Below are positions 12,339 through 31,008 of a stretch of 64,000 nucleotides of DNA, piece by piece. Numbering within the stretch: the first letter of the stretch is position 1; each line of letters opens with the position of its first letter. The stretch is taken from the NCBI RefSeq assembly GCF_016863475.1, contig NZ_BOOY01000009.1, positions 1 to 64,000 on the forward strand, written 5' to 3'. Position numbers and translations under genes: made by a program. The notes beneath the pieces are model-generated. The model was not told where the DNA came from, searched no databases, and worked only from the letters and a program-made list of their open reading frames with translations. The DNA comes from Spirilliplanes yamanashiensis (GTDB lineage Bacteria > Actinomycetota > Actinomycetes > Mycobacteriales > Micromonosporaceae).

Positions 12339-12629
12339 TCAAATTCGATCGTAGACAGGGGTGTACTCGGGCGCAGTCTCAGGAACATCCGGGTATCGAA
12401 TGGTGCCCTCAGTCTCCCACCAGCGGCTCGTATACTCGCTCGGATTCTTGTACTCGAAGATCGCTACTAGGCCAAGCAGGGAGACCGGACTGTCCGCCCA
12501 GAAATCCCAGCCATCTCGCTCAGCGCAATACGCATCCTGCTTCCGGTCGTACCACACGGAGAATCCTTTATTCTCCAGGACTGCGATCGCCGTCGTGTAG
12601 ACATTCACGTGCTCGCTCAGCGCTGGCAT
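12339..12629 (-). CDS. Candidate immunity protein (96 aa) for the RHS C-terminal toxin
   Basis: It starts 8 nt downstream of the RHS stop on the same strand. Its composition is non-junk (W/Y/E rich) and its GC is markedly lower than the genome, matching the adjacent toxin tip. Confidence 0.5.
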   Translation of the reverse strand: MPALSEHVNVYTTAIAVLENKGFSVWYDRKQDAYCAERDGWDFWADSPVSLLGLVAIFEYKNPSEYTSRWWETEGTIRYPDVPETAPEYTPVYDRI

Positions 12630-12637
12630 CCCTACCC

Positions 12638-15600
12638 CTATCTGTTCCGGATGAGAGTTATCGCGTCGTGCGGAATCGAGCCTACGAAGAGAACCTCCTC
12701 AGCACGCCGCGCATCGCGCACCACGCGTGAGTCACCACTCCTGTTGGCGGCTTGCATGACGTTATTGTGATCAATAAACTTGGCCCCGCCCGCAATTGCC
12801 TTATTGACATCGATTGCAACCATTCCTTGACCTGAGGCGAACCGTTCGGTCGCTCCCTCAGTCACCGACGCAGAGATGTGCTTGGTCGGCCGGTTCAAAA
12901 TATGGTCGGTTATGGACCCGGTGGTACCGCGAGGCTGCAGGTCTTCGCCCTTGTCGAATGCCGTACGATCATCATAGTTCAGCTGCCGGTAAACCGTTGG
13001 CCCACAGTCCGCGCTGTTCCTACTCCTGTTGTTGTTGTGGACCAGTACCGGCGTGTCGCCGGCTGTCACATAGTACGTGTGGATGTCGGCCACGGTCAGG
13101 TCGCGCATTTCGCGCTTACCGTGATAATTGCGGACCGCCGCGACGACGACCCCGCTTCCTTCCACGCCCAGCTTCGTGCCCCGCCGGAGGTTCTTGGCGT
13201 CTGTCCACTTCCGGTCAGTGGCGTTCCAGAACGGGTGGTTCTGCGTCGTCTTCAGGACGTACGTCTTGCCCTTGTTGTTCCGGACCTTGAGGTCGGTCAG
13301 CTCACGGTCGAGATTGCGATGAATCGCGGTGACCTGCCGGTCACCAGATTTCCCGGTCTCCGGGTCCTTCGCCTCGACCTTGTCGCCGACGTTGACGTCC
13401 TTGATGGGACGGGTTGAGCCGTCTGCCATCAGCACCTCGGTGTCGGGGTCGAAGCTGTGCTTCGCTCCCTTGGCAGGTGCTGTCAGGCACCCGTGCCCGC
13501 CGCCGACCGAGACGCCGGCCACGCCGACGGCCGACTGCAGCCCGCTGCCACCGGAACCACCACCCTTGCGGTTGAGCAGGCTGAGGCCCGGGACCATACC
13601 GAGAACAGACGACTTCACGTCCACCCGGCCCGTCGTGACAGCCTGCCCGACGACGTCCTCGACGCCGTTCTGGGCCGCCTCCGTCGCCAGACGACCGGCC
13701 CAGCCCGTGCCCACACGCGCCGCCACCGCGGTGCCGACCTTCGCGGCGATGAGACCGCCCGCGCCACCCGCAAGACCCGACAGCGCGCCGGTGCCCAGCG
13801 ACCCGAGTGCGTCGCCCAACGAGTTGATGTCGCCTTGCAGGCCGTCCTTGGCCAGGTTGATCAGCGCGGCCGTTCCGGCCATACAGGCGATCGCGCCCAC
13901 GCCGGCTGTCACCGCCGTGCAGGCCACGCCGGCCAGGATCGCGCCACCGATCGCCGCGATCTCCAGCAGCATGTTCTTGTTGTTCTGCACAAACTTCTTC
14001 GTGGCGGCCACGCCGTCCTGGATGACGCTGACGGTTTTGCCGATCCCTCTGGCTACCTTCGCGAACGCTTTCTTGTGCGCCTGGAAGATTCTCGTTCGCT
14101 CGACCGCCGCGGCGATCGATTTCGCTTTCTGGGCGACCCACTTCCGGGCGCTGTTCGCCGTCTTCTGCACCCAGTTCTTGGCGCTGCTCCACGCCTTGGA
14201 GACGCTGTGGACCGCCTTACTGATGGTGCGGCCGACCGCCTTGACCGCCCGGGCGGCGTAGTTGTAGACCGACACGGCACCGCGGTAGAACGCCGTCGAC
14301 TGCACGTAGTTCTTCGTCGCCGTCCAGGCCGTCGAGACCACCGACGACACCGCGCTCTTGGCCTTGTTCCACGCGCCCTTGAAGCTCCAGTGGCCTGTCG
14401 GGTCCGTGTTCTTCAACGGGTTGGCGTCGCCGTACTGGTAGCGGTTGGCGCTGACCGAGTCCGGGACCGGGCTGACCGACGCCATGTCCCGGGTGTCGAA
14501 CTGGCCGGTGTCGACGTTGTACCAGCGCGCGTGCATGTTGACGCGGTTGGTCGCGGTGTCCTTCCACTCCGACTGGTAGCCGAGGCCGCCGACCAGGCCG
14601 GTCGACTGCAGGACTGCGCCCAGCGGGTCGTACGTCGCCGAGCCGATCAGGGTGGGGCTGTCGGCGGTGAACTGGCCCACGACGTCGTCGTGCTGGTCGG
14701 TCCAGACGTTGCGGGTGGCGCCCGCGGACCTGGTCGCGACCACGTCGCCGGCGCTGTCGCGCACGTACGTCGCCGACCCGTCGGCCGCCAGGTCGTTGCC
14801 CAGGCCTGAGTACGAGAAACCGTCTCGGATGGAGCGGCCGAGCGCGTCGTAGCGGTAGGTCTGGCTCGCCTGGTTGACGACCTGCCCGAAGGCGTCCGAG
14901 CGGGTGGTCTGGCCGCCCGCCGAGGCGAGCGTGCCCCGCGGCGTGTACGCGTACGAGGTGCCGTTCGCCGTCTTCAGGCGGTTGCGTTCGTCGTACGTGA
15001 ACAACTTCTCGCCGTTCTGCACGCGGTTGCCGGACTTGTCGTACGCGTACGCGGTGATCTTCGTACCGTCGTTCCAGGCCACCAGGCGGTCGGCGTAGTC
15101 GTACTCGTAGCTGTTGTCTGCGGAGCCGGCAAAGCCGGTGGTCTTCTTGCGGAGCAGGTTGTCGTTGTCGTCGTACTCGTACTCGATCTTGGCGATGGAG
15201 GCGCCCGCGCCGGTCTTCAGCTCGTCGACGATCGGGCGGTTGAAGTCGTCGAAGGCGATGTTGCGTGTGTTGCCCGTGCCGAACGTGACCTTCTCGACCT
15301 GCGACAGCTTGTTGTAGTCGTAGCTCTCCCGGATGCCTGCGGTCGTGTTGGCGAGGGTCTTGACCCGGCCCGCGCTGTCATAGGTGAACGACGTCCGGCC
15401 GGCGGCGTCCTCGCGCTCCGCAACTTCGCCGTCGTCGGTGTAGGAGAACGTCGTGTTGCCCGACGGGCCCGTAATTGAGGTGGGCAGTCCGCGGTCGTCG
15501 TACGACAGGACGTTCGTGCCGCCGACGCCGGAGAACTTCGTCATCCGGCCGCCGGTGTCGTAGTCGAACTCGCGGTTCTCCGTCGCCGCCTCGGCACCCG

Positions 15601-18600
15601 CGCCGACCTGCTTGCGCAGCTTGCCCATCTCGTCGTACTCGCTGGTCAGCGTGACGCCGCCGGGCAGCACCTGCTTGGCGGGGCGGCCTGCCCGGTCGTA
15701 CGCCGTGGTGAAGGTGCGGTCGGCCAGGTCGGGGTGCGCGGCCGTGGCAGGCTCGATCTGCGACTCCGGCAGGCCGAGCGAGTTGTACGTCGTCCAGAAC
15801 GCGTTGCGGCGGCCGTCGGTGAACCGGGTGCGGTTGCCCGCCAGGTCATAGCCGAACGTGGTCTCGATGTGGTCGGAGTCGGAGATCGGCTGGATCTGCT
15901 TGACCAGCATGTTGGTAGCGTCGTACTCGAAGGTCGTCGTGTTGACGTTGGGATCCGTGCTCTCGACCACGTTGCCGGCCGGATCGTACGACGTATGGGC
16001 CGTGTGCCATTCGCCCTCGGCACCCTGCGTGAGAACTCTCGTCACCCGACCGGCAGAGTCGCGGTTCTCCGTGATCTCCGTGCCGTCCGGCAGGTACGTC
16101 GACGTGTACCCGCCGCCGTACTCGAAGCGGGTGATGTTGCCGGCGCCGTCTGTCTCGGTCAGCGGCCGGCCGGTCGCGTCGTACGTCGTCTTGGTAGTGA
16201 CCTTGCCGGGCGAGACGGTCTCTGCGAGCCACCCGCCGTAGCCGTAGCGATAGTCGGTGGTCAGTTGCTTGCCGGTCTGCCGCACCGCGGTTGTCGTGGT
16301 GACCTGCCGGCCGAGGAAGTCCCAAGTGGCGGCATTCACTGCTCCGTTGGGATCGGTCATCTGCAGCACGTCGCCGACCAGGTTGTAGCGGTAGCGGGTC
16401 TCGCCGCCGTTCGCCGCCGTCACCTTCGCGAGGCGATCGAGCTGGTCGTAGGTGTACCGGGTGGTCTTGCCGAGCGGGTCGCGCACCGACTCCAGGCGAC
16501 CCGACGGGTCGTAGTTGTTGACCACCTCGGGGACCACGGCCTCCGACGTACCGGGCGCGGTGTAGCGCGGCAGCTTGGACGACGTGGCCCTGCCGTCGGC
16601 GTCAAAGGTGGTGACCGACCAGTTTCCGTTCTCGTCCTTGGTGTCGGTCGTCTCGCCGAAAGTGTTGTAGCCGGTCCAGCTGACCGCGTTCGCCATGACC
16701 GAGCCACCGGTGGCGGTCTCGCTGAGCGCCGCCGGAGCCGTCGTCCTCACCGGCCGCCCGGCCTCGTCGTTGGCGAAGTAAGTTGTGTTGCCGTTCGGAT
16801 CGACCGTGGAGACGATCCGGCCGTTGCGGTCGCGCTTGTGGATGGTCCGGACGACCTGGCCGCTGTCCAGCCCGCCGTTGAGAATGTTGCGCTCGATGTT
16901 CGTCACAGCGTGCTGGTAGACCCTGACGTCGCGGACGGCGCCCGCCCAGCGGTCCGTGGCTCCCCCCGCGTACTTCCCCCGGCCAATGACGAAGGCGTTG
17001 TGACTCGGCAGCGGCTTGTTCAGGATCGTCGAACCTTCAAGCTTGCCGTTGACGTAGAGCTTCATCGACCGGTCGGTCGCGTCGTAGGCAGCCGCCAGGT
17101 GCGTCCATGTGTCGAGCTGCGGCACGGACGTCGAGAATGTGTTCTGGCCGGACCAGCTGTCGGCGTCGGCGCTAGGAACGGTCATCGACCACCGGTCGCT
17201 GGTGGCCTTGTACTGCAGGTAGAAGGCGCTGGCGCGCTCGCCGTCCTGGGAGAGCACGGTGCGGTTGCCACTCTTCGTGGTCAGCTTGACCCAGGCCGCA
17301 ACCGTGTAGCTGCTGGTCGTGTTGAGCGCGGGTCCAGGAGTCTCGACGGAGCCTGAACCGTTCAGGAGCAGGCCCCCGTCACGCTCGGCGGACCAGCTCG
17401 CGCCGGTGTCGAGCGCGCCGGTGAGGCTGCCCACGGAGTCAGGTGCGCTATTGCCCGCCTTCTCGGCGAGCGACCAGCGAGCCACCGGGTCGTACCGGCT
17501 CCCGGTGTGCGTCGTCTCGGTGAGCAGGGCGCCGGTCGCTGAGAACGATGACAGGACGGAACTGACGTCGAAGTACGCTCCGCCCTTGCCGTCGCCCTCA
17601 CGGTGCACCGTCGACACGACGTTGTCGTCGGCGTCGTAGGTGAGCTCGGTCAGGCGGTCGACGCCCGTCGGGTCGGTGCGGGAGCTGGTCTGGCGGTTCG
17701 CCGCGTCGTAGGTGTACTCGGTGGCCGTGGCGCCCTGGTTCGTGATCGCCTTCGTGACGTTGCCGGCGGCGTCGTAGAAGTTTTCCGCCAGCACGACGGT
17801 CTTCTCGCCGTCGGTGCGGGTCGTCTTCGCCTGGAGGCCGTCGTCCGTGTACGTGTGGCTGGTCGTCCAGCCCATGGCGTCCGTCTCGGAGGCCAGGCGG
17901 CCGGCCGGGTCGTACGAGCGGGACACCACCACCAGGTCCTTGGCGGGCTGGGGGTCGTTCGGGTCGCCCGTCCAGCCGAGCAGGGTTGAGGTGAGCAGGC
18001 GGCCCGCTGCGTCGTACGCGTTGCGGACCACGCCGCCGTCGTCGCTCTCCTCCTCGGCGATGCGGCCGTACGCGTCGTAGCGGTAGACCGTCGTGCGGCC
18101 GCCCGGAGACGTGTCGCTGGTCTCCTGGCCGTACTCGTTGAAGGTGTGCCGCTGGGTGCGGGTCGCGTCGCCGCCGGTGAGGTCCTGCTCGATGACGGCG
18201 GTGGTGTTGCCGTCGCGGTCGTACTCGTTGGTGGTCAGCTTGGTGTGGACCGCCCCCGTGACGCGGTTTGTGACGCCCGGGTCCCGCACGGTCTTCGCGC
18301 GGCCCATCGCGTCGTACGTGTACGTGGTGACCAGGCCCTGCGGGTGGGTGTCGGTGACCTCGGTCTGGGTGGCGCGGCGGCCGAGGCCGTCGTAGGTGAA
18401 GGTGGTGACCTTGCCGGCCGGGTCGGTCACCTCGGCGACGTCGCCGGTGGCGTAGTACCTGACGGTCTGCTTGGCGCCGCCGGGCGTGACAACCGTGGTC
18501 GGCAGGCCGGCGGGGGTGACGCCGCCGCCGACGGCGGCCGTGGTGGCCGTCGTGTACGTCGTGGCCGTCACCCGGCCGAGCGGGTCGGTGACCGCCGTCC

Positions 18601-21600
18601 GGTTGCCCTGGGCGTCGTAGGCGTACGACGTCAGGTACGTGTTGTCCGTGGCGGAAGCGGAGCGGCCGTCGCGCGACGTCAGCATCAGGTCGTTGCGGGC
18701 GTCGGGCGCCAGCGTGGTGCTCGTCGCGTCCGGGTAGTACGTGAAGTACACCGAGGAGCACTTGTTCGCGGCCTGGTTCTGGCAGGTGATGGTCTGCTTG
18801 GTGTTGCCGCGCACGTCCTGCAGGTTCTGCGTCCACACACCGTTCGGGTCGTAGATGAGGCTGCCGAAGCCGCCGACGTCGTAGCCGAACCTCGTCTCGT
18901 TGCCGAGGGCGTCGCCCTGTGCCACGAGGCGGTTTCCGTTGACCAGGTCGTAGCTGGAGACGAGCTGCTCGCCGGAGGGGCCGGTCACCGTCACCCGGGA
19001 GACGGGCATCGGCACGGCCTTGGCGACGCCGGCAACCATGGTGACGGCGACCGGGGCGGTCTGCTTCGCCGCCGCCCAGTGCGCACTCACCTGGTCGACG
19101 CTCAGCGTCGACGGCACGTAGGCGACCTCGGCGATGGAGCCGGGGAAGTAGCCGGCGGCGGGCGTCGTCGTGCTGCCCGTCCACCCGGCCGACCACTTGC
19201 CGGCCCCGACGTAGGCGTGCACGGCAGCGGTCGGCTTCAGATCGCCGTCGAGCTTGCCGACCAGCTGGCCGTCGAGATACAGCGACTGGGTGGCCGGAGC
19301 GGCGGACAGCACCACGTGGTGCCACTTGCCGTCGTTCACGGCGTTCTTGCTGACGATGGACTGGACCTTGCCGGTCCAGAGCCCGCCCCGAAGCTTGCCG
19401 TCCGTGCCGACGTAGATGGCGGGCACCCAGGCGCCCTCGTTGCTGGCGACCTCGCTCATCTCGACGGTCTGATAGCCGTAGAGGATGCCGCCCGCGGTGC
19501 TCCTGTTCGCCATCTTGAACCACATGGAGATGGACGCCGGGTCGGTGCTCGGCACGTCGGCCTCAGGCATCTCCAGGTACGACGAGGTGCCGTTGAAGCT
19601 CGCCGCAGTGGCGTCCTCGAAGGGCCCGGGCACGCCCAGCGTGACCTGGTTGAAGCCGGCGTCGCCGCCCGCGACCTCGTTGACCGGGTCCCCGACGTCG
19701 CTCTCGGCCAGCCGGAAGTAGTCGGCCGGGCGGGCGCCGAGCACCGAGGCGGCGTACACGTCGCTGCTGCCGACCACCGTCGGCGCCGCCAGCTTCCAGG
19801 TGCCGCCGTTCTCGTCGGTGACCTGTGCGACGTTGCCGGTGACGCGGTCGTAGGCGACTGCGGCGGTCACGCCGCCGGAGGGCCGGACGACCCGGTCCAG
19901 CACAGGCTGCTTCGTCACGCCGGCGTTGCGCAGCTGCGCGACGGTGCCACCGGTCAGCGCCTGGTTGAACACCGCCACGTCGGAGATGGCGCCGTTGAAG
20001 TAGGTGGCCGGAGCGGGCGCCTTGCCGGAGTTCGCGTGGTCAGGCCAGCTGCCACCTACGAAACCGGCGCCGACCACGACGTTGTTGCTGCTGGCCGCGG
20101 ACCACGTGACGATCGTGCCGGCAAGCGTGGCCCGGGCGACACCGTCGACGTACAGGGTCTGCGAGTCACCCGCACCGGCGAGCGCGACGTGGTGCCACTT
20201 GCCGTCGGTGACCTTGATACCCGAGTTCATCGTCTTGGCGGCGCTGCCCATCCAGAACTGGCCGCGGAGATTGCCGTTCTTGTCGACGTACAGCGCCGGG
20301 GTGTAGTCGCTGGTTGCGCTGCCCTTGGTGACGGGTGTGCCGTTGTAGCTGAACAGCACGCCGTTCGGCGTCGACGTCCGGAACCACATGCTGACCGTCT
20401 GGTACTGCCCGTTGGCGATGAGCTTTCCGGGCAGCTGGACGTGCGAGCTCGTGCCGTTGAAGCCGGCGGTCGTCGCCTCCGATCCGGCGAGGCCGGCAGG
20501 CTGGCCGAGCGCGACGTCGGCGTACCGCGCGTTGTCCGTCCCGGCGTTGCTCAGCACGGCACTGGCGGCGGTCTGGCCGGCGGTCTCCCGCAGCGGCCAG
20601 TACGACGTCGGGCCGGCGTTGAGCACCGTGTTGGCGTACTGGGAAGTGTCGGCGTGACCGTACTTCCAGCACTGGTCGGCGCCGTCGGGCTGGCAGACCC
20701 GCTCCAGCCGGTCGTCGGCGCCGTAGGTGTACGTCCACGTGCCGGCGCTCTCCGGCCGCGCCGGGTCGGCACGATCGGTGATCACCTGGGTGACGTGCGG
20801 CTGTGTGGAGCCGGTCGGCGTGGCCCAGCGCAACGTGAGGCTGCGGCCGGACGCCGCGGTCAGCTTCTCGGGGTTGCCCGCCGCGTCGTGCGTGACGGTC
20901 AGCCTGCGACCGTTCGCATCGGTGATGGAGGTCAACCGGTAGACGCCGGCACCTGCGGCGCGGCCGAACGCGTAGACGCTCGCGTCCTTGTCGGTCAGCG
21001 TGTAACCGGTAAGCGTCGTGCCGCTCTTGGTCTCGGTGAAGGTGGCGAAACGGCCCTGCGGCGGCGTGAAGGAGCCGTCGGGCCTGCGACCGAACGCCAG
21101 GTCCTGCCCCGTCGGGTACGTCACCGCGACGGTCTGCACAGTCCCGGCGGCGTCCTTCACCTGGGTGGCGCGCATGTCGAGCACGCTCGCCCACCCCGTG
21201 CCGAACGCGTTGGTGCGGCGCGTGTCGAGGCTGTTGTAGCTGCGGGTCAACGCCAGCGACGGGCCGACGGTCGGCACGCTGGCGTCGGTCGCGGACGTCG
21301 TGTAGTTGCCGGTGCTCGGGTCGTACCCCTTGCCGGGGTTCTGCGCGAGGCCCGAGGTGATGAGCGGCTGCGGCACCGACGTCGTGAACGACCACGGCAG
21401 CGTGATGCCGCTCTTGGTGACGGTGTCGTCGACCTGAGCGCTCCACAGGTACGTGCCGTTCCAGGCGAGCTTGCCGGCCGGCACGGTCCAGGCGGCGGAC
21501 GAGATGGACCCGGAGTCCGCCACCGCGACCTTGGGACTCTTGATGTCGTACACCGTGAACTGGTACTTCAAGCCCTTGTTGGGCCAGGCGTCGCCGTCCT

Positions 21601-23377
21601 TGGCACGGACGATCAGCTCGGGGGTGAGCGTCGGCATGACCGCGTTGGCGGCCGGGTAGCGGGCATCGATCTGCGGCTTGACGTTCTCCGCGTACGTGAG
21701 CTCCAGAACCGGCGAAAAGCTGCCGCCGGAGACGTTCGCCGAGGTGAACCGCTTGAACGCCGGCTCGTCGCCCGCACCCTCGCCGGCCACCAGGGCGAGA
21801 CCGTTGTTGGCGGCGCCCTTCGACCAGTCGTTGAAGGTGGTGACGTTCAACGGCACGGTCACCCACTGGCCGATCGTCGGGTCGCCGCCCGTGTTGCCGC
21901 ACGTCGCCGACGTCGGCGTCGGATTGAGGGAACCGACGGTGGCGGAGGTCAGCGCGGGTCCCGGCCAGGCGCCGTCGGTCTGGCCCGCGACCGTCCACTT
22001 CTCGCTGATCCGGCGGACGGTGAACGGCTGGGTGCTGTTGCACCGGTACGCCCAAGTCATGTGCAGCTTGAGCTTGGCCGCGGTGATCCGCATGCCCTTG
22101 AAGCCCTGGTCGTCGAACTTGTCGAAGTGGATGAAGGACCGGTACTTGTGGGTGCCGCCGTCCCAGGTGCCGACCGGCAGGTCGTTGCCGTTGCCGTTGG
22201 CGGCCGGCTGGTTGTCCACCATCACGTCGCCCGTGGCCACCGTGCTGGCGGTCGGGTCGACCCGCACCGGGAAGACGCGGGCCGGGTCGCGCAGCCACGC
22301 CTGGCTCGCGTCGACCCGCAGCGCCCAGCCGCCATCGCGCTCGAGCAGTGCGTAGGTGATGTCGCCGGAGTCGGCCGGCGCACCCGACCGGGGGTCGACC
22401 TTCGAGTCGTACATGTAGCCGGCCGGGAACCATGCCACGGTCTCGCCGGCGGCGTTGCGCAGCTCGACGTCGTTGTGCTCGCCCAGGTGCGGCGTCAGCC
22501 CCTTGAGGCGCAGGGGGAACACCCAGGACGACGGCGCGTCCGGGGAGTGCAGGACCAGCGTCTCCTTGACGCCGGCGTCGAAGGTCTCCAGCTCGAGGTC
22601 CGTCGCGGGCAGGACGGCCGGGTACGTGGACCTGATCCCGTCCACCACGCCCGTGGCCGGTGCCGCGCCCTCCAGCCAGTAGCCGAAGGACTCGCCGGTC
22701 GGCAGCGTGACGGTGGCCAATTCCTCGGTGCGGCGGACGTCCTCCGCCTGAGCGGCCGGTGCCGCGGCAGCGCGCACGGCCGAGGCCGTCGGGCGGCCGA
22801 TCCGGCTCGTGACGGAGACCCCGATGCTGTTGGCCGCCATGTGCAGGCGCCCGTCGGCGCGCTTGACGAGGTCGAGGTCGATCGGCTGGAAGGTGCCGTC
22901 GGCGGCCTCGTAGTTCACGGGGCGGCCGTAGCGGCGCGTCGTCCGGGATCCGTCGGCGTTCTGGAAGACGTCGGTCGACGCCGTCGAGCGGTTCGCGAGC
23001 CGCTTGCTGGTCCTCGCGTCGAAGGTGCCCTCGCCGTCGGCGACGGTCTTCGCCGCCGACGGGTCGTGCGGAACGTACGGGTCGAGCGTGCCCGGGGCCT
23101 GGACCGGCTTACGGCCCGTGCCACCACCTGCGCGGGTGTCGGCGGCGGAGGCCGGGCGGCCGTCGAGCGCGCCGGGTCCGCGTTCCTGCTGTGGCAGTCC
23201 CGTCACCGAGGCGAGCGCCGACGACTGGCCGAGCCACGACCACATCCAGGAGATCGGGAAGTCGCCTTCCGGCACCGCGCCCGGCGGTACGGCCACATTC
23301 AGCCCGAGCACCGCCGCAACGACGACACCGACCCGTTTCCAGGCACGCAGCATCCCCGTCTCCTCCCCCGTGATCAC
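12638..23377 (-). CDS. RHS/YD-repeat polymorphic toxin (3579 aa): signal peptide, 3 LamG-like domains, YD repeats, RHS core, Lys/Ala-rich helical region, glycine-zipper hydrophobic segment, Hint domain, C-terminal toxin domain of unassigned family
   Basis: Many YD motifs are present (TYTYDAMGR, YRYDAYGR, YDAAGRLL and others). The RHS core end motif is YGDANPLKNTDPTGHW. The Hint motifs are CLTAPAKG...TEVLMADGS...HNHPFW...VLVHN. The last ~130 aa are unique and low-GC. Confidence 0.9.
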   Translation of the reverse strand: MITGEETGMLRAWKRVGVVVAAVLGLNVAVPPGAVPEGDFPISWMWSWLGQSSALASVTGLPQQERGPGALDGRPASAADTRAGGGTGRKPVQAPGTLDPYVPHDPSAAKTVADGEGTFDARTSKRLANRSTASTDVFQNADGSRTTRRYGRPVNYEAADGTFQPIDLDLVKRADGRLHMAANSIGVSVTSRIGRPTASAVRAAAAPAAQAEDVRRTEELATVTLPTGESFGYWLEGAAPATGVVDGIRSTYPAVLPATDLELETFDAGVKETLVLHSPDAPSSWVFPLRLKGLTPHLGEHNDVELRNAAGETVAWFPAGYMYDSKVDPRSGAPADSGDITYALLERDGGWALRVDASQAWLRDPARVFPVRVDPTASTVATGDVMVDNQPAANGNGNDLPVGTWDGGTHKYRSFIHFDKFDDQGFKGMRITAAKLKLHMTWAYRCNSTQPFTVRRISEKWTVAGQTDGAWPGPALTSATVGSLNPTPTSATCGNTGGDPTIGQWVTVPLNVTTFNDWSKGAANNGLALVAGEGAGDEPAFKRFTSANVSGGSFSPVLELTYAENVKPQIDARYPAANAVMPTLTPELIVRAKDGDAWPNKGLKYQFTVYDIKSPKVAVADSGSISSAAWTVPAGKLAWNGTYLWSAQVDDTVTKSGITLPWSFTTSVPQPLITSGLAQNPGKGYDPSTGNYTTSATDASVPTVGPSLALTRSYNSLDTRRTNAFGTGWASVLDMRATQVKDAAGTVQTVAVTYPTGQDLAFGRRPDGSFTPPQGRFATFTETKSGTTLTGYTLTDKDASVYAFGRAAGAGVYRLTSITDANGRRLTVTHDAAGNPEKLTAASGRSLTLRWATPTGSTQPHVTQVITDRADPARPESAGTWTYTYGADDRLERVCQPDGADQCWKYGHADTSQYANTVLNAGPTSYWPLRETAGQTAASAVLSNAGTDNARYADVALGQPAGLAGSEATTAGFNGTSSHVQLPGKLIANGQYQTVSMWFRTSTPNGVLFSYNGTPVTKGSATSDYTPALYVDKNGNLRGQFWMGSAAKTMNSGIKVTDGKWHHVALAGAGDSQTLYVDGVARATLAGTIVTWSAASSNNVVVGAGFVGGSWPDHANSGKAPAPATYFNGAISDVAVFNQALTGGTVAQLRNAGVTKQPVLDRVVRPSGGVTAAVAYDRVTGNVAQVTDENGGTWKLAAPTVVGSSDVYAASVLGARPADYFRLAESDVGDPVNEVAGGDAGFNQVTLGVPGPFEDATAASFNGTSSYLEMPEADVPSTDPASISMWFKMANRSTAGGILYGYQTVEMSEVASNEGAWVPAIYVGTDGKLRGGLWTGKVQSIVSKNAVNDGKWHHVVLSAAPATQSLYLDGQLVGKLDGDLKPTAAVHAYVGAGKWSAGWTGSTTTPAAGYFPGSIAEVAYVPSTLSVDQVSAHWAAAKQTAPVAVTMVAGVAKAVPMPVSRVTVTGPSGEQLVSSYDLVNGNRLVAQGDALGNETRFGYDVGGFGSLIYDPNGVWTQNLQDVRGNTKQTITCQNQAANKCSSVYFTYYPDATSTTLAPDARNDLMLTSRDGRSASATDNTYLTSYAYDAQGNRTAVTDPLGRVTATTYTTATTAAVGGGVTPAGLPTTVVTPGGAKQTVRYYATGDVAEVTDPAGKVTTFTYDGLGRRATQTEVTDTHPQGLVTTYTYDAMGRAKTVRDPGVTNRVTGAVHTKLTTNEYDRDGNTTAVIEQDLTGGDATRTQRHTFNEYGQETSDTSPGGRTTVYRYDAYGRIAEEESDDGGVVRNAYDAAGRLLTSTLLGWTGDPNDPQPAKDLVVVSRSYDPAGRLASETDAMGWTTSHTYTDDGLQAKTTRTDGEKTVVLAENFYDAAGNVTKAITNQGATATEYTYDAANRQTSSRTDPTGVDRLTELTYDADDNVVSTVHREGDGKGGAYFDVSSVLSSFSATGALLTETTHTGSRYDPVARWSLAEKAGNSAPDSVGSLTGALDTGASWSAERDGGLLLNGSGSVETPGPALNTTSSYTVAAWVKLTTKSGNRTVLSQDGERASAFYLQYKATSDRWSMTVPSADADSWSGQNTFSTSVPQLDTWTHLAAAYDATDRSMKLYVNGKLEGSTILNKPLPSHNAFVIGRGKYAGGATDRWAGAVRDVRVYQHAVTNIERNILNGGLDSGQVVRTIHKRDRNGRIVSTVDPNGNTTYFANDEAGRPVRTTAPAALSETATGGSVMANAVSWTGYNTFGETTDTKDENGNWSVTTFDADGRATSSKLPRYTAPGTSEAVVPEVVNNYDPSGRLESVRDPLGKTTRYTYDQLDRLAKVTAANGGETRYRYNLVGDVLQMTDPNGAVNAATWDFLGRQVTTTTAVRQTGKQLTTDYRYGYGGWLAETVSPGKVTTKTTYDATGRPLTETDGAGNITRFEYGGGYTSTYLPDGTEITENRDSAGRVTRVLTQGAEGEWHTAHTSYDPAGNVVESTDPNVNTTTFEYDATNMLVKQIQPISDSDHIETTFGYDLAGNRTRFTDGRRNAFWTTYNSLGLPESQIEPATAAHPDLADRTFTTAYDRAGRPAKQVLPGGVTLTSEYDEMGKLRKQVGAGAEAATENREFDYDTGGRMTKFSGVGGTNVLSYDDRGLPTSITGPSGNTTFSYTDDGEVAEREDAAGRTSFTYDSAGRVKTLANTTAGIRESYDYNKLSQVEKVTFGTGNTRNIAFDDFNRPIVDELKTGAGASIAKIEYEYDDNDNLLRKKTTGFAGSADNSYEYDYADRLVAWNDGTKITAYAYDKSGNRVQNGEKLFTYDERNRLKTANGTSYAYTPRGTLASAGGQTTRSDAFGQVVNQASQTYRYDALGRSIRDGFSYSGLGNDLAADGSATYVRDSAGDVVATRSAGATRNVWTDQHDDVVGQFTADSPTLIGSATYDPLGAVLQSTGLVGGLGYQSEWKDTATNRVNMHARWYNVDTGQFDTRDMASVSPVPDSVSANRYQYGDANPLKNTDPTGHWSFKGAWNKAKSAVSSVVSTAWTATKNYVQSTAFYRGAVSVYNYAARAVKAVGRTISKAVHSVSKAWSSAKNWVQKTANSARKWVAQKAKSIAAAVERTRIFQAHKKAFAKVARGIGKTVSVIQDGVAATKKFVQNNKNMLLEIAAIGGAILAGVACTAVTAGVGAIACMAGTAALINLAKDGLQGDINSLGDALGSLGTGALSGLAGGAGGLIAAKVGTAVAARVGTGWAGRLATEAAQNGVEDVVGQAVTTGRVDVKSSVLGMVPGLSLLNRKGGGSGGSGLQSAVGVAGVSVGGGHGCLTAPAKGAKHSFDPDTEVLMADGSTRPIKDVNVGDKVEAKDPETGKSGDRQVTAIHRNLDRELTDLKVRNNKGKTYVLKTTQNHPFWNATDRKWTDAKNLRRGTKLGVEGSGVVVAAVRNYHGKREMRDLTVADIHTYYVTAGDTPVLVHNNNRSRNSADCGPTVYRQLNYDDRTAFDKGEDLQPRGTTGSITDHILNRPTKHISASVTEGATERFASGQGMVAIDVNKAIAGGAKFIDHNNVMQAANRSGDSRVVRDARRAEEVLFVGSIPHDAITLIRNR

Positions 23378-23463: not shown

Positions 23464-24033
23464 TCAGCCCTTCAACGCTTCGGCCACCAGCGCTTCCACC
23501 GTTCGGCTGATGGCGGCCGGCTCCTGCTCCTCCACAACGGACACGTTGTCGCGGCGGGCGCCCGTGCCCACAAGGACGAACCGGACGTTCGTGTAGGTCG
23601 GCGCCGCCGCGACGACCGCCCCGTTCGCGGCGTCACCGACGCTGAGAATCAGGTCACATCGGCTGTTCACCAGCGTCGCCAGGTAGGTGGCCGCCTGCTC
23701 GCGCGTCTGCGGTCCGTCGACCTCCAGGTACTGCACCTTGCCGCGGGTCTCCAGCGACGCGGCCTGCATGCCGGCCCATACCGGCGCTGCCGCCGGATCG
23801 TTCACGCCACCACTGCCGGTGAGCAGACAGGCACTCACGTCGCGGTACACGCGCGCCCGCGGATCGGGCGAGCCCTCGGGCCAGACGAGCCAGGTGACCA
23901 CCGAGGCGACGAGCAGCGCGAGGGCCGAGCCGGCGATGACCGCTGTGCGCCGGCCGCCGGGCAGGCGCCATCGCGGCGCGCCGGCCCGACCGGCCCTGGC
24001 GCGCAGCTTCTGACCCACTCCTCCGCCGAGCAT
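23464..24033 (-). pseudogene. N-terminal half of a BMP-family (PnrA/Med-like) substrate-binding lipoprotein, apparently truncated (189 aa)
   Basis: SACLLTGSGGVNDPAAAPVWAGMQAAS...GKVQYLEV...CDLILSVGDAANGAVVAAAPTYTNVRFVLVGTG matches the conserved N-terminal BMP domain pattern. The ORF stops after ~190 aa, 87 bp before the RHS start. The track offers no continuation frame. Confidence 0.4.
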
Positions 24034-24097
24034 GGCGGAGAGAGTACAACGCGCCGCCCGGCCGGGCGGCCCCGTCAGTCGGCCCCGGGCACGACCG

Positions 24098-24838
24098 GCC
24101 TGCGGCCCATTGCGCGTAAGCGATCGGCCGGTCCGTGATGACCGCGTCCACCCACGGCTGGAGGCGGGACCAGTCGGCGGCCCCGTTCGGCGTCCACGCG
24201 TACAGCTTCAGGCCCGCCGCCCGCCACGTCGCCGCCCGGGCCGCCGTGATCGACCCGTGGGCCTTGACGAAGGACGTGCCGAGCGGGATGACCGCTTCGG
24301 GTGGCAGGTGGCCGGCGTTGTGGACCAGGGCCGTCACGGTGCCGGGGATCGCGGTGCGGGCCGCCAGCACTGTGGTGCGGTCGAAGGACATGAGGGTGAC
24401 GGCGGGGCGGCCGACGGTGGCGTCGATGTCGGCGGCGACCGCGGCCCACTGCGCCGGGGTGGGGGTGACCTTGAGTTCGGTGAGGACGTGGGTGCCGGGC
24501 GGCGCGGCCGCGTAGACGGCGCGCAGCGTCGGGACGACCTGGCCGTCGTCGGTGGGGACCGGGGTGGTGAAGCGGGTGATCGGGCCCGTGCGGGGGCTGA
24601 TCCGGTCGACGGTGGCGTCGTGCAGGACGACCGGGGTGCCGGTGGCGTCGAAGCGGACGTCGAGTTCCCACGTGGGGATCCCGGCGTCGGCGGCGGCGTG
24701 GAACGCGTCGAGGGTGTTCTCCAGGGCGTGTTCGGTGCCGCCGCGGTGGGCGGCCGGTGGGGGTGCGCAGGGTTGTGGGGCCGGCGCCGGCACTGCCGGG
24801 GGGACGAGCAGTGCCAGCGCCGTGACGAGGGGGAGCAT
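24098..24838 (-). CDS. Secreted glycerophosphodiester phosphodiesterase (GDPD family); C-terminal boundary unresolved
   Basis: A signal peptide MLPLVTALALLVPPAV is followed by HRGGTEHALENTLDAF...ELDVRFDATGTPVVLHDATVDRI...ITDRPIAYAQW. The in-frame ORF then runs on through Arg-rich junk to 23654. This suggests a frameshift or sequencing error near 24075-24100, and a stop exists at 24075-77 in the adjacent frame. Confidence 0.65.
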
Positions 24839-24840
24839 GG

Positions 24841-26961
24841 TCAGCTGGACAGGCGGACCTGGAGGACGGACAGGGTGGTGACCGCGCCGGCGGCCGGTTC
24901 GCCCGGGAAGGCCTCGCCGGGGGTGCCGACGACGGCGTCCGCCCTGCCGTCCTTGTTGAGGTCGCCGAGGGCGAGGGCCGCGGTGAAGCGGTCGCCGGCC
25001 TCCGGGGTGCCCCACAGGTCGTCCTGGCCGAACCAGGTGTACGGGGTGAGCGCGTGCGGCCGGGCCGTGGTGACGGCCCCGCCGTGGAAGACGGTCAGCG
25101 CGCCGAAGCCGTTGGCGTGGCCGGGCATGCCGGCGAGCAGGTCGGCGTAGCCGTCGGCGTTGACGTCGCCGGTGGCGAAGGCGCTGCCGAACTCGTCGCC
25201 GGCGTTGTTGCCGAGGTTCTCGAACTGGCGGGGCTCGGCCGTGAACGCCTTGCCGGTGGTGGTCTGGCCGCCGGGGAAGACGGTCATCGCGCCCGAGCGG
25301 GGCAGGTCGCCGGGGGCCTCGCCGGGGACGCCGGCGACGACGTCGCCCCAGCCGTCCTTGTTGAAGTCGCCCACCGCGACGGCCGCGCCGAAGCGGTCAC
25401 CGGCCTCGTTGACGCCGCCGTTTCCGCTCTGGTTCCTGCCGAAGCCGGCGCCCTTGCCGTCGGCGTCGCCGGGCATCACGAAGATGCAGCCGGCGGACGG
25501 GTCGGCGGCGGGGGCCTCGTTCGGGACGCCGATGACGAGGTCCGCGTAGACGCCGGCGCCGGACTTGTTGCCGACGACGTTGCCGGCGGCGAGGGCGGCG
25601 CCGAACCGGTCGCCGGCCTCGTCCCCGCCGCCCATCTCGGTCTGGTTGATCGTCCACCCGGCGGCGAGCGCGGTGCCCGTGCCCTTGAGGATCACGACCT
25701 CACCGCTGGCGAGACCCCCCAGACGGCGGCCGGGTGCGCCGACGGCCAGGTCGGCACGGCCGTCGCCGTTGAAGTCCCCGGCGGCGAGGGCGGCGCCGAA
25801 CTCGTCGTTGGCGCCGTCAGTGCGGCCGATGTCATTCTGGTCGATGCCGCGGGCCTTCTCCAGGCCGTTCGCGGAGCCGTGGAAGATCGCGATCGACCCG
25901 GCCTTCGTCGTGCCGACGACCTCGCCGGGGGTGCCGACGGCGAGGTCGGCGCGCTTGTCGTTGTTGAAGTCGCCGACGGCCAGGGCGGCCCCGAACCGGT
26001 CGCCCGCCTCGTCGGCCGCGTTGAACTCGGTCTGCGACAGCACGCGGCCCGTGGACGGGCCGTTCTTGCCGCCGTTGAAGACGGTCACCGTGCCGGACGC
26101 GGCCCCGGCGGCCGAGGGGGCGTTCGGGGCGCCGACGGCGATGTCGAGGTGGCCGTCGCCGTTGAAGTCGGCGGTGGCGACGGCGGAGCCGAAGCCGGCG
26201 CCCGCGGTGGGCGCCCGGCCGGCGTCGACCGGGGTGAGGGTGAGCTGGTCGTAGGCGTCGGCGCCGGGGGCGGCCCAGCGGAAGCCGGCGACCGGGGCGG
26301 CCTGCACGGCGCCGGTGGTGTCGGTCGAGCCCAGGCAGCCTTCGGTGGCGGCGGTGGTCGCTACGGCGACGATCTCGTAGCGGTCGTCGCCCGCGGACCG
26401 GACGATGGGCGCGCCGGCGTCGCCGCGGCACAGGCCGGAACCCTCGGTGGCGGGGGTGAGGTCGACGCCGCCGTCGCGGGCCGCGGTGACGTCGAGGCCG
26501 ACGGTGTGCGGGGCGTCCGGGATCCAGGTGGTCCTGGTGCGGCCGAGGCCGGCGGCGGTGAGCCGCTCGCCGGTGGCGGCGGCCCGGGTGGCGAGGCGCG
26601 CGGTGGGCGCGGTGACGGGAGACGCGAGCGCGACCAGGGCGAGGCCGGGCGCGGCGTTCTGCCGGACGTCGGCGACGCGGACGGTGCGGCCGCCGGCGAC
26701 GGCGGTGAGCGTGGCGGTGACGCCGGCGACGCACTGTTGCGCGGTCAGGACGACCCGCGGGCCGATGAGGGCGCCGGTGCAGTTGCGGGCGCCGTCGGCG
26801 CCGGGCGTGCCGGCCTGGAGGCGGACGGCGAACCCGAAGGCGTCGCCGCCGGCGGCACCGCCGGCGGCGTGGGCCGGGGCGCCGAGCAGGGCCGCGGCGG
26901 TGGCGGCGGCCGCGCAGGCGGCGGTGAGCCGCCCGCCGGATGTGGGCATGGTGGTACGCAT
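24841..26961 (-). CDS. Secreted trypsin-fold pseudoprotease domain fused to multiple FG-GAP (integrin-alpha-like) beta-propeller repeats
   Basis: Signal peptide present. CTGALIGPRVVLTAQQC replaces the ...TAAHC motif (H->Q). GDAGAPIV replaces GDSGGP (S->A). GLALVAL sits at the Asp102 position. At least six DFNGDG/DFNNDK...AVGAPG FG-GAP repeats follow. Confidence 0.8.
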   Translation of the reverse strand: MRTTMPTSGGRLTAACAAAATAAALLGAPAHAAGGAAGGDAFGFAVRLQAGTPGADGARNCTGALIGPRVVLTAQQCVAGVTATLTAVAGGRTVRVADVRQNAAPGLALVALASPVTAPTARLATRAAATGERLTAAGLGRTRTTWIPDAPHTVGLDVTAARDGGVDLTPATEGSGLCRGDAGAPIVRSAGDDRYEIVAVATTAATEGCLGSTDTTGAVQAAPVAGFRWAAPGADAYDQLTLTPVDAGRAPTAGAGFGSAVATADFNGDGHLDIAVGAPNAPSAAGAASGTVTVFNGGKNGPSTGRVLSQTEFNAADEAGDRFGAALAVGDFNNDKRADLAVGTPGEVVGTTKAGSIAIFHGSANGLEKARGIDQNDIGRTDGANDEFGAALAAGDFNGDGRADLAVGAPGRRLGGLASGEVVILKGTGTALAAGWTINQTEMGGGDEAGDRFGAALAAGNVVGNKSGAGVYADLVIGVPNEAPAADPSAGCIFVMPGDADGKGAGFGRNQSGNGGVNEAGDRFGAAVAVGDFNKDGWGDVVAGVPGEAPGDLPRSGAMTVFPGGQTTTGKAFTAEPRQFENLGNNAGDEFGSAFATGDVNADGYADLLAGMPGHANGFGALTVFHGGAVTTARPHALTPYTWFGQDDLWGTPEAGDRFTAALALGDLNKDGRADAVVGTPGEAFPGEPAAGAVTTLSVLQVRLSS

Positions 26962-27276
26962 TGATGAACTCCCCCGTGTTGACCGCCGGAATCCTCACGG
27001 ATGCGGCGCGAGGCTGTCCACCCCGTCCGCGTGCGCGCGCACATACTCACGCAATGTGGTGGCAGGCAGCGACCGAGCGTTACGGGAAGGTTGTCCGCAT
27101 TCGGACCAGCTGCGATGTCCGTTCCGTCTGGCCTCCGCCGAAAGGTCAGCCGCCCGCACACTTCAGCTCGCGGCTCTTGTGTGACGCTCAGTAGCTGTCC
27201 TACGGTGTTTCCAGCACGTTAATGACGCTGAGTGACCGCTCGATCGTCCCGTCCCCCCGGAAGGCGCTCCGCGACC

Positions 27277-28467
27277 ATGACCCACTCCGAAGTGCACCTC
27301 GTCGGCGGCACCCGCCTCGAGGCCGTGAAGCTCGCCCCGGTGGCCGTGGCGATGCGCGCCGCGGGCCTCGTCGCACCGGTCCTCGTGGCCGGCGGCCGGC
27401 ACCCCGCCCGGCTGCGGCAGGCGCTGGCCGCGTTCGACCTGGAGCCCGACGTCACGCTCGACGTCGAGCCGGGCGGCGACAGCCGGGCCGAACTGCTCAC
27501 CGAGCTGGTCCGCGGGCTGGACGCGTTGTGGAGCGCGCGTCCGCCCGCGGCCGTCGTCGTCCAGGGCGACAGCACCACCAGCCTGGCCGGGGCGCTGGCC
27601 GCGTACGCGCTGCGGATCCCGGTGGTGCACCTGGAGGCGGGGGTGCGGTCGGGCGACCTGGAGTCGCCGTTCCCCGAGGAGGCCAACCGGCGGCTCGTCG
27701 CGCAGATCGCCCGCCTGCACCTGGCGCCCACGCCGCCGGCCGCCATGAACCTGGTGGACGAGGGCGTCGGCGCGGACGGCGTGCTGATCACCGGCAACAC
27801 CGTCGTCGACGCCACGCTCGCCGTCGCCGCGCGCAAGCTGCCCTACGAGGACGCGGACGTCGCCGCCGCCCGGGCCGCCTCGCACGGCCGCCGGCTCATC
27901 CTGGTCACCGCGCACCGCCGCGAGTCCTGGGGCGCCCCGCTCGACCGGATCCTGGAGGCGGTCCGCGCGCTGGTGCGCCGCTACTCCGACGTCGAGGTCG
28001 TGCTGCCCAGCCACCCCGACCCCGCCGTGCGGGCGCAGGTGGACGCCGCGCTCGGCGGGATGGAGCGGGTCACCGTCACCGGCCCGCTGCCGTACCCGGA
28101 CCTGGCCCGGCTGCTCAGCGAGGCGTACCTGGTGCTCACCGACTCGGGCGGCCTGCAGGAGGAGGCGCCGTCGTTCGGGGTGCCCGCGCTGGTGCTGCGC
28201 GACGTCACCGAGCGGGTCGAGTCACTCAACGCCGGCTGCGCCCGGCTCGTCGGCTCCGACACCGACCTCATCGTCAAGGAGGCCGCGGTCCTGCTCGACG
28301 ACCGCCGCCGCCGCGACGCCATGACCGCGTCCGGCAACCCGTACGGCGACGGCCTGGCCGCCGCCCGGGCCGCCCAGGCGACGGCCGCCCTGCTGGGCCT
28401 GGCCGAGCCGCCCGAGGCGATGCCCGCCGTCGTGCCCGCCGCCGCCTCGACCGGGGTGCCCGCCTGA
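27277..28467 (+). CDS. wecB: UDP-N-acetylglucosamine 2-epimerase (non-hydrolysing)
   Basis: MTHSEVHLVGGTRLEAVKLAPV, HLEAGVRSGD and DSGGLQEEAPSFGVPALVLRDVTER are family hallmarks. The start was chosen at the conserved N-terminus, since the track start at 27232 adds 15 aa. Confidence 0.85.
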   Translation: MTHSEVHLVGGTRLEAVKLAPVAVAMRAAGLVAPVLVAGGRHPARLRQALAAFDLEPDVTLDVEPGGDSRAELLTELVRGLDALWSARPPAAVVVQGDSTTSLAGALAAYALRIPVVHLEAGVRSGDLESPFPEEANRRLVAQIARLHLAPTPPAAMNLVDEGVGADGVLITGNTVVDATLAVAARKLPYEDADVAAARAASHGRRLILVTAHRRESWGAPLDRILEAVRALVRRYSDVEVVLPSHPDPAVRAQVDAALGGMERVTVTGPLPYPDLARLLSEAYLVLTDSGGLQEEAPSFGVPALVLRDVTERVESLNAGCARLVGSDTDLIVKEAAVLLDDRRRRDAMTASGNPYGDGLAAARAAQATAALLGLAEPPEAMPAVVPAAASTGVPA

Positions 28468-28485: not shown

Positions 28486-28938
28486 GTGACGCTCGCCCGC
28501 GGTCACCGCGTGTCAGGATCGGATCACACCTGCTGGAGGTACGCGTTGCCCATCGAGTCCCCGACGGCGAACGTCGCCCGGTTCTACGCCGAGGCGTGGA
28601 CCCAGCGCGACCCGTCCGCGGTCCGCCGGATCATCGCGCCGTGCGCCGAGATCGAGTGGAACCTCGACCTGCCCGTCGACGACGAGCAGCTCGTGCAGAC
28701 GCTCGACCGGCTCGCGGCGAGCGCCCGGTCGGTCGCGCTGGTGTCGGAGACGTACGCCGGCGAGCGGGCCACGATGCTGTACGACTGCGCCGGGGTGTTC
28801 GGCAGCGCCCGGGTGGCGGAGTTCCTGGTGGTCGCCGACGGCCGGATCACCGAGGTGCGCCAGGTGTGGGATCCGACGGCCGTGCGCCGCTACTTCCCGG
28901 ACCTGCTGGAGGACGTCAGCCCTCCCCCAGCCCCTTGA
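28486..28938 (+). CDS. SnoaL-like / NTF2-fold small protein
   Basis: The ~150-aa ORF has the (A)RFYAEAW...DP motif typical of the SnoaL/ketosteroid-isomerase-like fold. The start is uncertain. Confidence 0.45.
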   Translation: MTLARGHRVSGSDHTCWRYALPIESPTANVARFYAEAWTQRDPSAVRRIIAPCAEIEWNLDLPVDDEQLVQTLDRLAASARSVALVSETYAGERATMLYDCAGVFGSARVAEFLVVADGRITEVRQVWDPTAVRRYFPDLLEDVSPPPAP

Positions 28939-30541: not shown

Positions 30542-31008
30542 CCCGCCCCCTTCCGCCACACCAGGTGTCCTCCTATCGGCACGCCGGAGCGGATGCTGAG
30601 AAAACGCCCCGGGCATGACACCGGTCACAGCACTGCCGGGTGTCAATATGCGCTCGTCAGCGAATTGACGGTCCGATGTGGATCTCCCATTCACGTGACG
30701 GAAAGCTGACCTGACCACGCGGCGTATTCCCAACGGTGCACCGGGTCGTTAGCTTGTCCACTGTGGGACGACGCTTGAGGGATCAGGCGGGGGCATCGTG
30801 GCGCGCGGAGGTGGACGTGACCAGGGGTGATGTTCGGTCGGCGCCAGGCTGACCGGAGCGCGGCGGCGCCGCCGCCGGATGACACGCATTTTTCTTCACA
30901 TTTCCGCGTAACCGCTGGGCCATTCCGGCCGGCGGTAGGTCAGCGCGCGCATTTCCTTCCCGGGGCGGCCCCTCGGGAGCTCCGGCGCGCCCATTTCCGG
31001 GAGAGATC

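Follow-up and report, generated by a model that had tools for sequence, protein, structure and literature searches.

A minus-strand gene in a 64,000-nucleotide stretch of Spirilliplanes yamanashiensis DNA (hereafter, the window) encodes a protein that, by the definition used in the field and by a specific signature, is assigned from its sequence to UmbA, the family of lectin subunits of actinobacterial umbrella (Umb) toxin particles (PMC11062931, PMC13274773). The predicted product (Table 1) consists of a signal peptide, a trypsin-fold domain in which all three catalytic residues are replaced, and a seven-bladed FG-GAP propeller. We consider it likely that the protein is an "orphan" UmbA lectin subunit, i.e., one encoded away from umbB and umbC, whose cleft would bind UmbB and whose Ca-type propeller would recognize a glycopolymer of the target cell. 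The UmbA family was described in 2024-2025, and the window protein is a further member of it, not a new kind of protein.

The gene is real. Its open reading frame is a complete coding sequence of 706 amino acids with a third-position GC content (GC3) of 0.97 in a genome of ca. 74% GC; it ends with a TGA stop codon at positions 24841-24843, and a ribosome-binding-site-like sequence, GGGGGAG, is found 8 nt upstream of its ATG. The product is 100% identical to an S. yamanashiensis protein at NCBI annotated as "trypsin-like serine protease" ("Esterase" in UniRef), and more than 25 full-length orthologs, 53-61% identical to it, were found in genomes of Micromonosporaceae and in soil metagenomes. 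The putative Sec-type signal peptide, identified by inspection of the sequence, starts with a basic n-region, followed by an h-region rich in Ala and by the cleavage motif AHA↓A. An AlphaFold2 (AF2) model of the whole protein was obtained with a pLDDT of 83.9 and a pTM of 0.84; residues 1-35 are disordered in this model (pLDDT <50). The original prediction, an earlier note made on this DNA, had described a secreted trypsin-fold domain joined to an FG-GAP propeller, and this is borne out, since both the Trypsin and the FG-GAP families of Pfam were found and a signal peptide is predicted.

The Trypsin family (PF00089) was matched at residues 43-209 with an E-value of 5.6e-10 and a score of 39.8 bits (cutoff 20.6), and the double β-barrel fold of S1 peptidases is backed by both Pfam and the AF2 model. 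Positions of the catalytic triad were assigned by alignment to S. griseus trypsin. As can be seen from Table 1, Gln, Gly and Ala occupy the positions of His57, Asp102 and Ser195, respectively, exactly as had been proposed earlier. Among 20 orthologs, the His57 column contains no His at all, the Ser195 column contains Ala in 18, and the Asp102 column contains G, N, S or D. The equivalents of Gly193 and Asp194 (G180 and D181) and both S1 disulfides (C61-C77 and C178-C209, corresponding to C42-C58 and C191-C220 in S1 numbering) are retained and are invariant in the same 20 orthologs. No alternative His or Ser that could rebuild the triad lies nearby: the sequence of the N-terminal domain has no Ser at or beside position 195, and the sole His of the mature domain, the conserved H152, is located downstream of the GxGRT motif, away from position 57. 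H152 was considered as a substitute catalytic His and rejected because its position is wrong and a nucleophile is missing. With three of the three residues required of an active S1 (chymotrypsin/trypsin) peptidase substituted, the domain is predicted to be a trypsin-fold pseudoprotease, unable to cleave peptides, and the most plausible role of its dead cleft is that of a binding module. A eukaryotic parallel is azurocidin (heparin-binding protein), a catalytically dead S1 homolog that was also retrieved from PDB as a weak sequence match (E 0.002). As in the window protein, the trypsin fold of azurocidin is kept, its catalytic residues are replaced and the fold is reused for binding. Unlike the window protein, azurocidin has neither the UmbA signature nor a fused lectin, and the two losses of activity occurred independently in unrelated lineages. 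The loss of the triad throughout the family represented by the orthologs matches what is reported for all six UmbAs of Streptomyces coelicolor, whose purified trypsin domains were devoid of protease activity (PMC11062931).

A phmmer search of PDB with the N-terminal domain retrieved S. coelicolor UmbA1 (8w20_C, E 2.8e-13) and UmbA4 (9oee_A, E 7.5e-13), while active trypsins were matched at 3.5e-6 or weaker; the UmbA E-values are thus ca. 10^7-fold better than that of any active trypsin. Entry 8W20 is the S. coelicolor Umb1 umbrella toxin particle, whose chain C is UmbA1 (PMC11062931), and entry 9OEE shows UmbA4 in complex with the teichuronic acid that is its receptor; both chains were deposited as "Secreted esterase". 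When the whole-chain AF2 model was compared with PDB using Foldseek, UmbA4 (9oee_A) was the top match (E 1.9e-26), and UmbA1 was also listed. In addition, bona fide umb loci were recovered from genomes with Actinoplanes philippinensis UmbB (Nature supplement) and an ALF alignment. Fourteen of these actinobacterial loci have trypsin-like genes adjoining umbB and umbC, and the products share 32-39% identity with the N-terminal domain of the window protein (best E 9e-25).

A joint alignment with 13 of the umbC-linked UmbAs revealed three common features, namely the lack of His57, a 13-residue deletion in the autolysis loop, and a G-[FY]-G-R-T-x3-W-[VI]-P...H signature. These derived features are not present in real trypsin. 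The version of the signature found in the window protein, which has Leu at its second position (Table 1), is invariant in the 20 orthologs, R141, T142 and W146 being among the invariant residues. R141 aligns with Arg156 of UmbA1 (residue 156 of 8w20_C), which is a positional match.

[quoted passage not shown] The window protein is retrieved in this way, and its N-terminal domain is closer to the trypsin-type UmbA domain, UmbA(T), than to active S1 proteases. It also has the other attributes of the family: an incomplete triad, the cleft Arg, and a C-terminal propeller of a lectin type, for which sugar binding is predicted. In the published UmbA catalogues FG-GAP is listed as a lectin domain with an abundance of 310, in keeping with the recognition role proposed earlier for the propeller, and the catalogues also contain "inTrypsin" domains fused to seven-bladed propellers of ~470 amino acids, orphan UmbAs, and GDPD- and GDSL-containing relatives.

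Like UmbA1 (8W20_C) and UmbA4 (9OEE), the window protein combines a signal peptide, an inactive trypsin fold and a C-terminal β-propeller lectin, and it shares with them the missing His57, the loop deletion, the GxGRT...W.P signature and the position of the UmbB-binding Arg. There are also clear differences. Identity to these proteins in the N-terminal domain is only ~30-35%; UmbA1 keeps Asp102, whereas the window protein has lost all three triad residues; and the lectins of UmbA1 and UmbA4 are five- or six-bladed, whereas that of the window protein is a seven-bladed, integrin-type FG-GAP propeller with Ca-type loops, which would widen the repertoire of receptor-binding modules. Finally, the host is, unlike S. 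coelicolor, a member of the Micromonosporaceae. If the protein is read as UmbA-type, Spirilliplanes and its relatives among the Micromonosporaceae probably produce umbrella toxins.

The names given to the protein in public databases imply a different possibility, i.e., that it is a still-active peptidase or esterase with non-canonical catalytic residues, and retention of the oxyanion-hole Gly and of the Asp194 equivalent would agree with this. The name "Esterase" can be traced to FusH (NCBIfam NF000157), a fusidic acid esterase from Streptomyces lividans; its first ~220 residues form an inactive-trypsin domain of the same type (E 4.7e-14). The match covers residues 14-224 of the window protein and positions 28-248 of the 520-position model, and it scores 51.9 bits, compared with an equivalog cutoff of 999. 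FusH carries a C-terminal GDSL-type esterase domain, whereas no GDSL family of Pfam matches the window protein. The shared N-terminal domain explains the misleading names "Esterase" and "Secreted esterase" of UmbA-family proteins, PDB entries included. Neither Pfam nor NCBIfam detected a GDSL/SGNH or other hydrolase domain, and the esterase reading was rejected on this ground; a peptidase is opposed by the lack of a position-195 nucleophile and of a position-57 His in the 20 orthologs and by the inactivity of the homologous UmbA1 and UmbA5 trypsin domains on casein (PMC11062931). We regard an active hydrolase as scarcely credible. Both public names, "trypsin-like serine protease" and "Esterase", are functionally wrong, and the protein is better read as a UmbA-type lectin subunit. 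It leaves the current picture of the UmbA family unchanged, and its main value lies in annotation.

In the C-terminal part of the protein, Pfam FG-GAP (PF01839) was matched in six stretches with an E-value of 1.3e-54. The AF2 model contains a propeller of 28 strands with pLDDT mostly between 85 and 97, in which blade 7 is closed by the strand formed by residues 240-242. Six Ca-type loops conforming to D-x-N-x-D-[GK]-x-x-D begin at residues 265, 331, 396, 532, 599 and 667, and blade 4 is degenerate. Thus, where "6+ Ca-binding FG-GAP repeats" had been proposed, the propeller itself stands, and the count is seven blades, six of them canonical. The propeller probably binds Ca2+. Foldseek matched it to integrin α headpieces with a TM-score of ~0.7 when normalized to the integrin headpiece, and the seven FG-GAP blades and D-x-[DN]-x-D-G-x-x-D loops are common to both. 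Unlike the integrin α propeller, to which it is ~18-20% identical, it is found in a bacterial secreted protein, has no β-subunit partner, and its ligand is presumably a glycan. Members of the same propeller family (45-54% identity) are also fused in actinobacteria to a PLL-like propeller (PF26607), PhoD, reprolysin, astacin, subtilisin, CAP and CHAP, and in these bacteria the family seems to serve as a promiscuous targeting domain.

The function that the cleft may have is suggested by the S. coelicolor particle. There, the N-terminus of UmbB, an extended segment with the consensus A-V-E-D, lies in the former substrate cleft of UmbA, and its Glu forms a salt bridge with Arg156 of UmbA1. In UmbA5, UmbB binding is lost when the corresponding Arg is mutated. 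UmbB itself is seated on the ALF repeats of the polymorphic toxin UmbC (PMC11062931). The lectins, located at the tips of the spokes, bind species-specific wall glycopolymers (teichuronic acid on wall teichoic acid) and set the target range (PMC11062931, PMC13274773). By analogy, the window protein would be exported by virtue of its Sec signal peptide. Its trypsin fold, in which Gln76, Gly106 and Ala182 replace the triad in the alignment, would be unable to cut peptides. Instead, the dead cleft would clamp the extended N-terminal strand of a UmbB with a ...[LIV]-V-E-[DNT]-[FY]-x-Y-P-G... motif, Arg141 pairing with the Glu of the motif, and this UmbB would sit on an ALF repeat of a UmbC toxin. 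The clamping step is modeled on homology to S. coelicolor UmbA1 and UmbA5 and on UmbB-fused homologs described below. The seven-bladed propeller would act as a lectin for a cell-wall glycopolymer of competitor actinomycetes and would set target specificity. The original prediction, that the cleft retains substrate binding and acts as a binding or regulatory module, holds as far as a binding module is concerned; the UmbA cleft binds a specific partner, UmbB, and not generic substrates. Likewise, of the proposed cell-surface adhesion or recognition protein, recognition remains: a UmbA lectin targets a secreted toxin to glycopolymers of competitors and is not an adhesin of the producer's surface.

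Two metagenomic homologs, P0028 (843 amino acids) and P0029 (872 amino acids), have the same Trypsin+FG-GAP architecture as the window protein and are 54% identical to it in the propeller and 35-38% identical in the N-terminal domain. Their C-terminal extension is a UmbB domain, as judged by a hidden Markov model (HMM) built from 17 locus-encoded UmbBs (E 1e-22) and by a match to S. coelicolor UmbB1 (8w20_B, E 1e-12), in which SIVETYDYPGAA aligned to AVEDFSYPGAA. Genes for a 1194-aa protein (upstream) and a 673-aa protein (downstream), possible UmbC candidates, are recorded beside these UmbB-fused homologs. C-terminal UmbB fusions of this kind (UmbAB, "Trypsin+lectin+umbB") are already present in published tables. 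The window protein has the same inactive trypsin and FG-GAP propeller as P0028, P0029 and the published fusions; unlike them, its chain stops at the end of the propeller and includes no UmbB domain, so that UmbB would have to be supplied by another gene.

Several observations weigh against an orphan UmbA subunit. First, P0028 and P0029 belong to a sister subclade, outside the GDPD-linked subclade (see below) that contains the window protein. Second, neither umbB nor umbC (ALF) was found within the 64-kb window by tblastn and custom UmbB and ALF HMMs, and the same searches found neither gene within 10 kb of five homologous loci, those of Jidongwangia (L002), Actinoplanes sp. M2I2 (L003), Micromonospora sp. 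WMMD975 (L004), Actinoplanes sp. NBRC 101535 (L031) and a metagenome contig (L032); the custom HMMs readily detect UmbB in umb loci. Third, the propeller could be a general targeting module, not one specific to Umb particles, because it is fused to many unrelated secreted hydrolases. On the other hand, S. coelicolor has well-documented orphan UmbA genes that are functional, so the missing local umbB and umbC do not contradict membership in the family. Searches beyond the loci were too insensitive to decide the matter: A. philippinensis UmbB (gBlock translation) returned six matches, none in Spirilliplanes; a scan of genome contigs, in which the ALF alignment was used with two narrow peptide patterns, recovered 23 umb loci, compared with 875 published umb-positive species, and Spirilliplanes was not among them; and an ALF profile search, whose word prefilter was saturated, returned 24 short proteins. 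It is mainly because umbB and umbC could not be established elsewhere in the Spirilliplanes genome that we consider an orphan UmbA likely and not near certain.

The UmbA-like gene is followed by a co-oriented gene for a secreted glycerophosphodiester phosphodiesterase (GDPD), which starts 2 nt past the UmbA-like stop codon (TGAccATG). The two genes are coupled as had been noted previously, with a spacer of 2 nt in place of the 0 nt given then. The GDPD product begins with a signal peptide, and its catalytic domain is complete, including the HRGG, ENT, WELDV and LHD motifs. Its orthologs are 267-271 amino acids long; in the window, the GDPD reading frame passes their stop by ~140 out-of-frame, Arg-rich codons and overruns the next gene, and the out-of-frame extension is marked by a switch of the GC3 frame. 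If the G-run at 24083-24086 were one nucleotide longer, the frame would end with ...SCPGAD-TGA, the stop codon being at 24075-24077. The missing stop may reflect either a real frameshift or a homopolymer assembly error. The gene is not in the public gene list of the assembly.

The UmbA-like and GDPD genes are kept together, in unrelated neighborhoods, with a 4-nt overlap in Jidongwangia (L002, 10001-12873) and a 0-nt spacer in Actinoplanes sp. M2I2 (L003, 10001-12934). Three more distant orthologs have no GDPD neighbor. In metagenomic protein P0040 (L030, 3339-5654), the same propeller family is fused directly to GDPD and there is no trypsin domain. These arrangements allow one to view the two genes as a stand-alone secreted module independent of umbrella particles, in which the propeller targets a glycerophosphate wall or environmental polymer, GDPD hydrolyzes this polymer for phosphate scavenging or teichoic-acid turnover, and the dead trypsin binds a partner other than UmbB, possibly GDPD itself. 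The tight junctions (0 to 4 nt) of the pair in unrelated surroundings, the trypsin-less P0040 fusion, the joining of the propeller family to PhoD, proteases and other secreted enzymes, and the lack of umbB and umbC at any of the six loci examined would all be accommodated by such a module. Strict conservation of the cleft signature and of the UmbB-contacting Arg argues instead for a UmbA-like ligand, the N-termini of the GDPDs have no conserved strand resembling VE[DN][FY]xYPG, the GDPD neighbor is missing from the distant orthologs, and orphan UmbA genes are normal in S. coelicolor. We therefore find a module of this kind rather unlikely. The N-termini of GDPD and of p189, the product of the next gene, were also considered as ligands of the cleft and rejected, since neither has a conserved VE[DN][FY]xYPG-like motif.

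If the window protein is an orphan UmbA, the translationally coupled GDPD could, speculatively, be an accessory enzyme that acts on glycerophosphodiester bonds (teichoic-acid-type linkages) of the same envelope polymers. The Umb receptors described so far are teichuronic acids linked to wall teichoic acid, which makes the GDPD partner a concrete lead on cooperation between a hydrolase and a lectin. In the Cell 2025 tables, Laminin_G_3+GDPD and GDSL+propeller proteins are found beside UmbAs; the main text mentions them once, in the methods. Lectin-associated hydrolases are, then, a recurrent companion of UmbA, catalogued and not discussed in the Umb papers. One can go further and propose that umbrella toxin biology has an enzymatic side that is still undescribed, to which the UmbA-like+GDPD operon may belong along with the FG-GAP+GDPD fusion and the Laminin_G_3+GDPD and GDSL+propeller proteins found near UmbAs. 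Lectin-guided hydrolases would then cut glycerophosphodiester (teichoic-acid-type) or O-acetyl groups of the receptor glycopolymer. If this were true, the hydrolases would either breach the wall of the target to let the toxin in or modify the surface of the producer so that it does not capture its own particles, and in a variant of the proposal the dead-trypsin cleft may be a general docking socket that recruits such hydrolases. We consider this proposal improbable at present.

A giant neighboring gene encodes an Rhs/YD polymorphic toxin of 3579 amino acids. It was tried as a candidate UmbC and rejected: a domain scan and custom HMMs found neither ALF repeats nor a UmbB-like region in it. The UmbA-like, GDPD, p189 and Rhs genes could still form one toxin operon, with the lectin and GDPD aiding delivery of the Rhs toxin to target cells. 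The four genes share the minus strand, along which no terminator-like site was found from the UmbA-like gene to the end of the Rhs gene. The FG-GAP+GDPD fusion P0040 adjoins a homologous Rhs toxin (37% identical), and the PT-HINT module of the window Rhs protein shares 45-48% identity with its counterparts in UmbC toxins of Micromonosporaceae. Several findings contradict this view, in addition to the missing ALF repeats and UmbB-like region: there is no Rhs gene at the syntenic L032 locus or at four other homologous loci, and the P0040 fusion gene and its Rhs neighbor are convergent. Moreover, GC content falls to 0.63-0.71 over 10-22 kb of the window, i.e., over the Rhs segment, as would be seen with an insertion, and this stretch is suggestive of an acquired island. 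The L032 contig is syntenic with positions 4163-28938 of the window: the UmbA-like gene is flanked at one end by Epimerase_2 and SnoaL genes and at the other by a trio encoding 202-aa, 684-aa and DUF3686-AAA proteins. L032 has no GDPD, p189 or Rhs genes, and in the window these three genes look like an insertion. Since L032 lacks them and the Rhs segment is lower in GC, the segment is probably an insertion and not a conserved partner, and a role of the UmbA-like protein as an accessory lectin of the Rhs toxin appears very unlikely.

Table 1. Features of the window discussed in the text
Feature	Position	Strand	Basis
UmbA-family coding sequence: signal peptide, predicted inactive trypsin-like domain, seven-bladed FG-GAP propeller	24841..26961	-	sequence, Pfam, orthologs
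Putative Sec-type signal peptide, residues 1-32	26866..26961	-	sequence inspection and model
Predicted inactive trypsin-fold domain, UmbA(T) type, residues 36-225	26287..26856	-	Pfam Trypsin, PDB matches, alignment
Gln76 at the His57 position	26734..26736	-	VLTAQQC vs VLTAAHC
Gly106 at the Asp102 position	26644..26646	-	GLALVAL vs DWALIKL
Ala182 at the Ser195 position	26416..26418	-	CRGDAGAP vs CQGDSGGP
UmbA signature G138-L-G-R141-T-x3-W146-I-P-x3-H152, after the 13-residue autolysis-loop deletion	26506..26550	-	alignments
Seven-bladed integrin-α-type FG-GAP β-propeller, residues 238-700	24862..26250	-	Pfam, AF2 model, Foldseek, motif scan
Secreted GDPD, co-oriented, downstream of the UmbA-like gene	23654..24838	-	Pfam, motifs
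p189: 189-aa protein, N-terminal membrane anchor, weak Bmp/PnrA-like region (E 0.03), between GDPD and Rhs	23464-24033	-	
Rhs/YD polymorphic toxin, 3579 aa: DUF6531, three Laminin_G, RHS repeats, PT-HINT, unclassified 130-aa C-terminal toxin	12638..23377	-	
Candidate cognate immunity protein, 96-aa low-GC open reading frame, begins 9 nt past the Rhs stop, no family match	12339-12629	-	
TIR + WD40 protein, 1251 aa	366-4121	-	
DUF3686/DUF7902/AAA ATPase (1631 aa), Band_7/SPFH protein (674 aa) and 197-aa membrane protein; trio conserved in L032	4163-11672	-	
Secreted or membrane-anchored 605-aa protein with ricin-B lectin domain	28916-30733	-	

Other genes of the window are also listed in Table 1. 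No homolog of p189 was found in the other loci fetched. The TIR+WD40 gene and the adjoining genes for the ATPase, the SPFH protein and the membrane protein are a defense-like gene set. The ricin-B gene is a second lectin gene, located less than 2 kb from the UmbA-like gene, and adjoins a UDP-GlcNAc 2-epimerase gene (27232-28467) and polysaccharide-synthesis genes.

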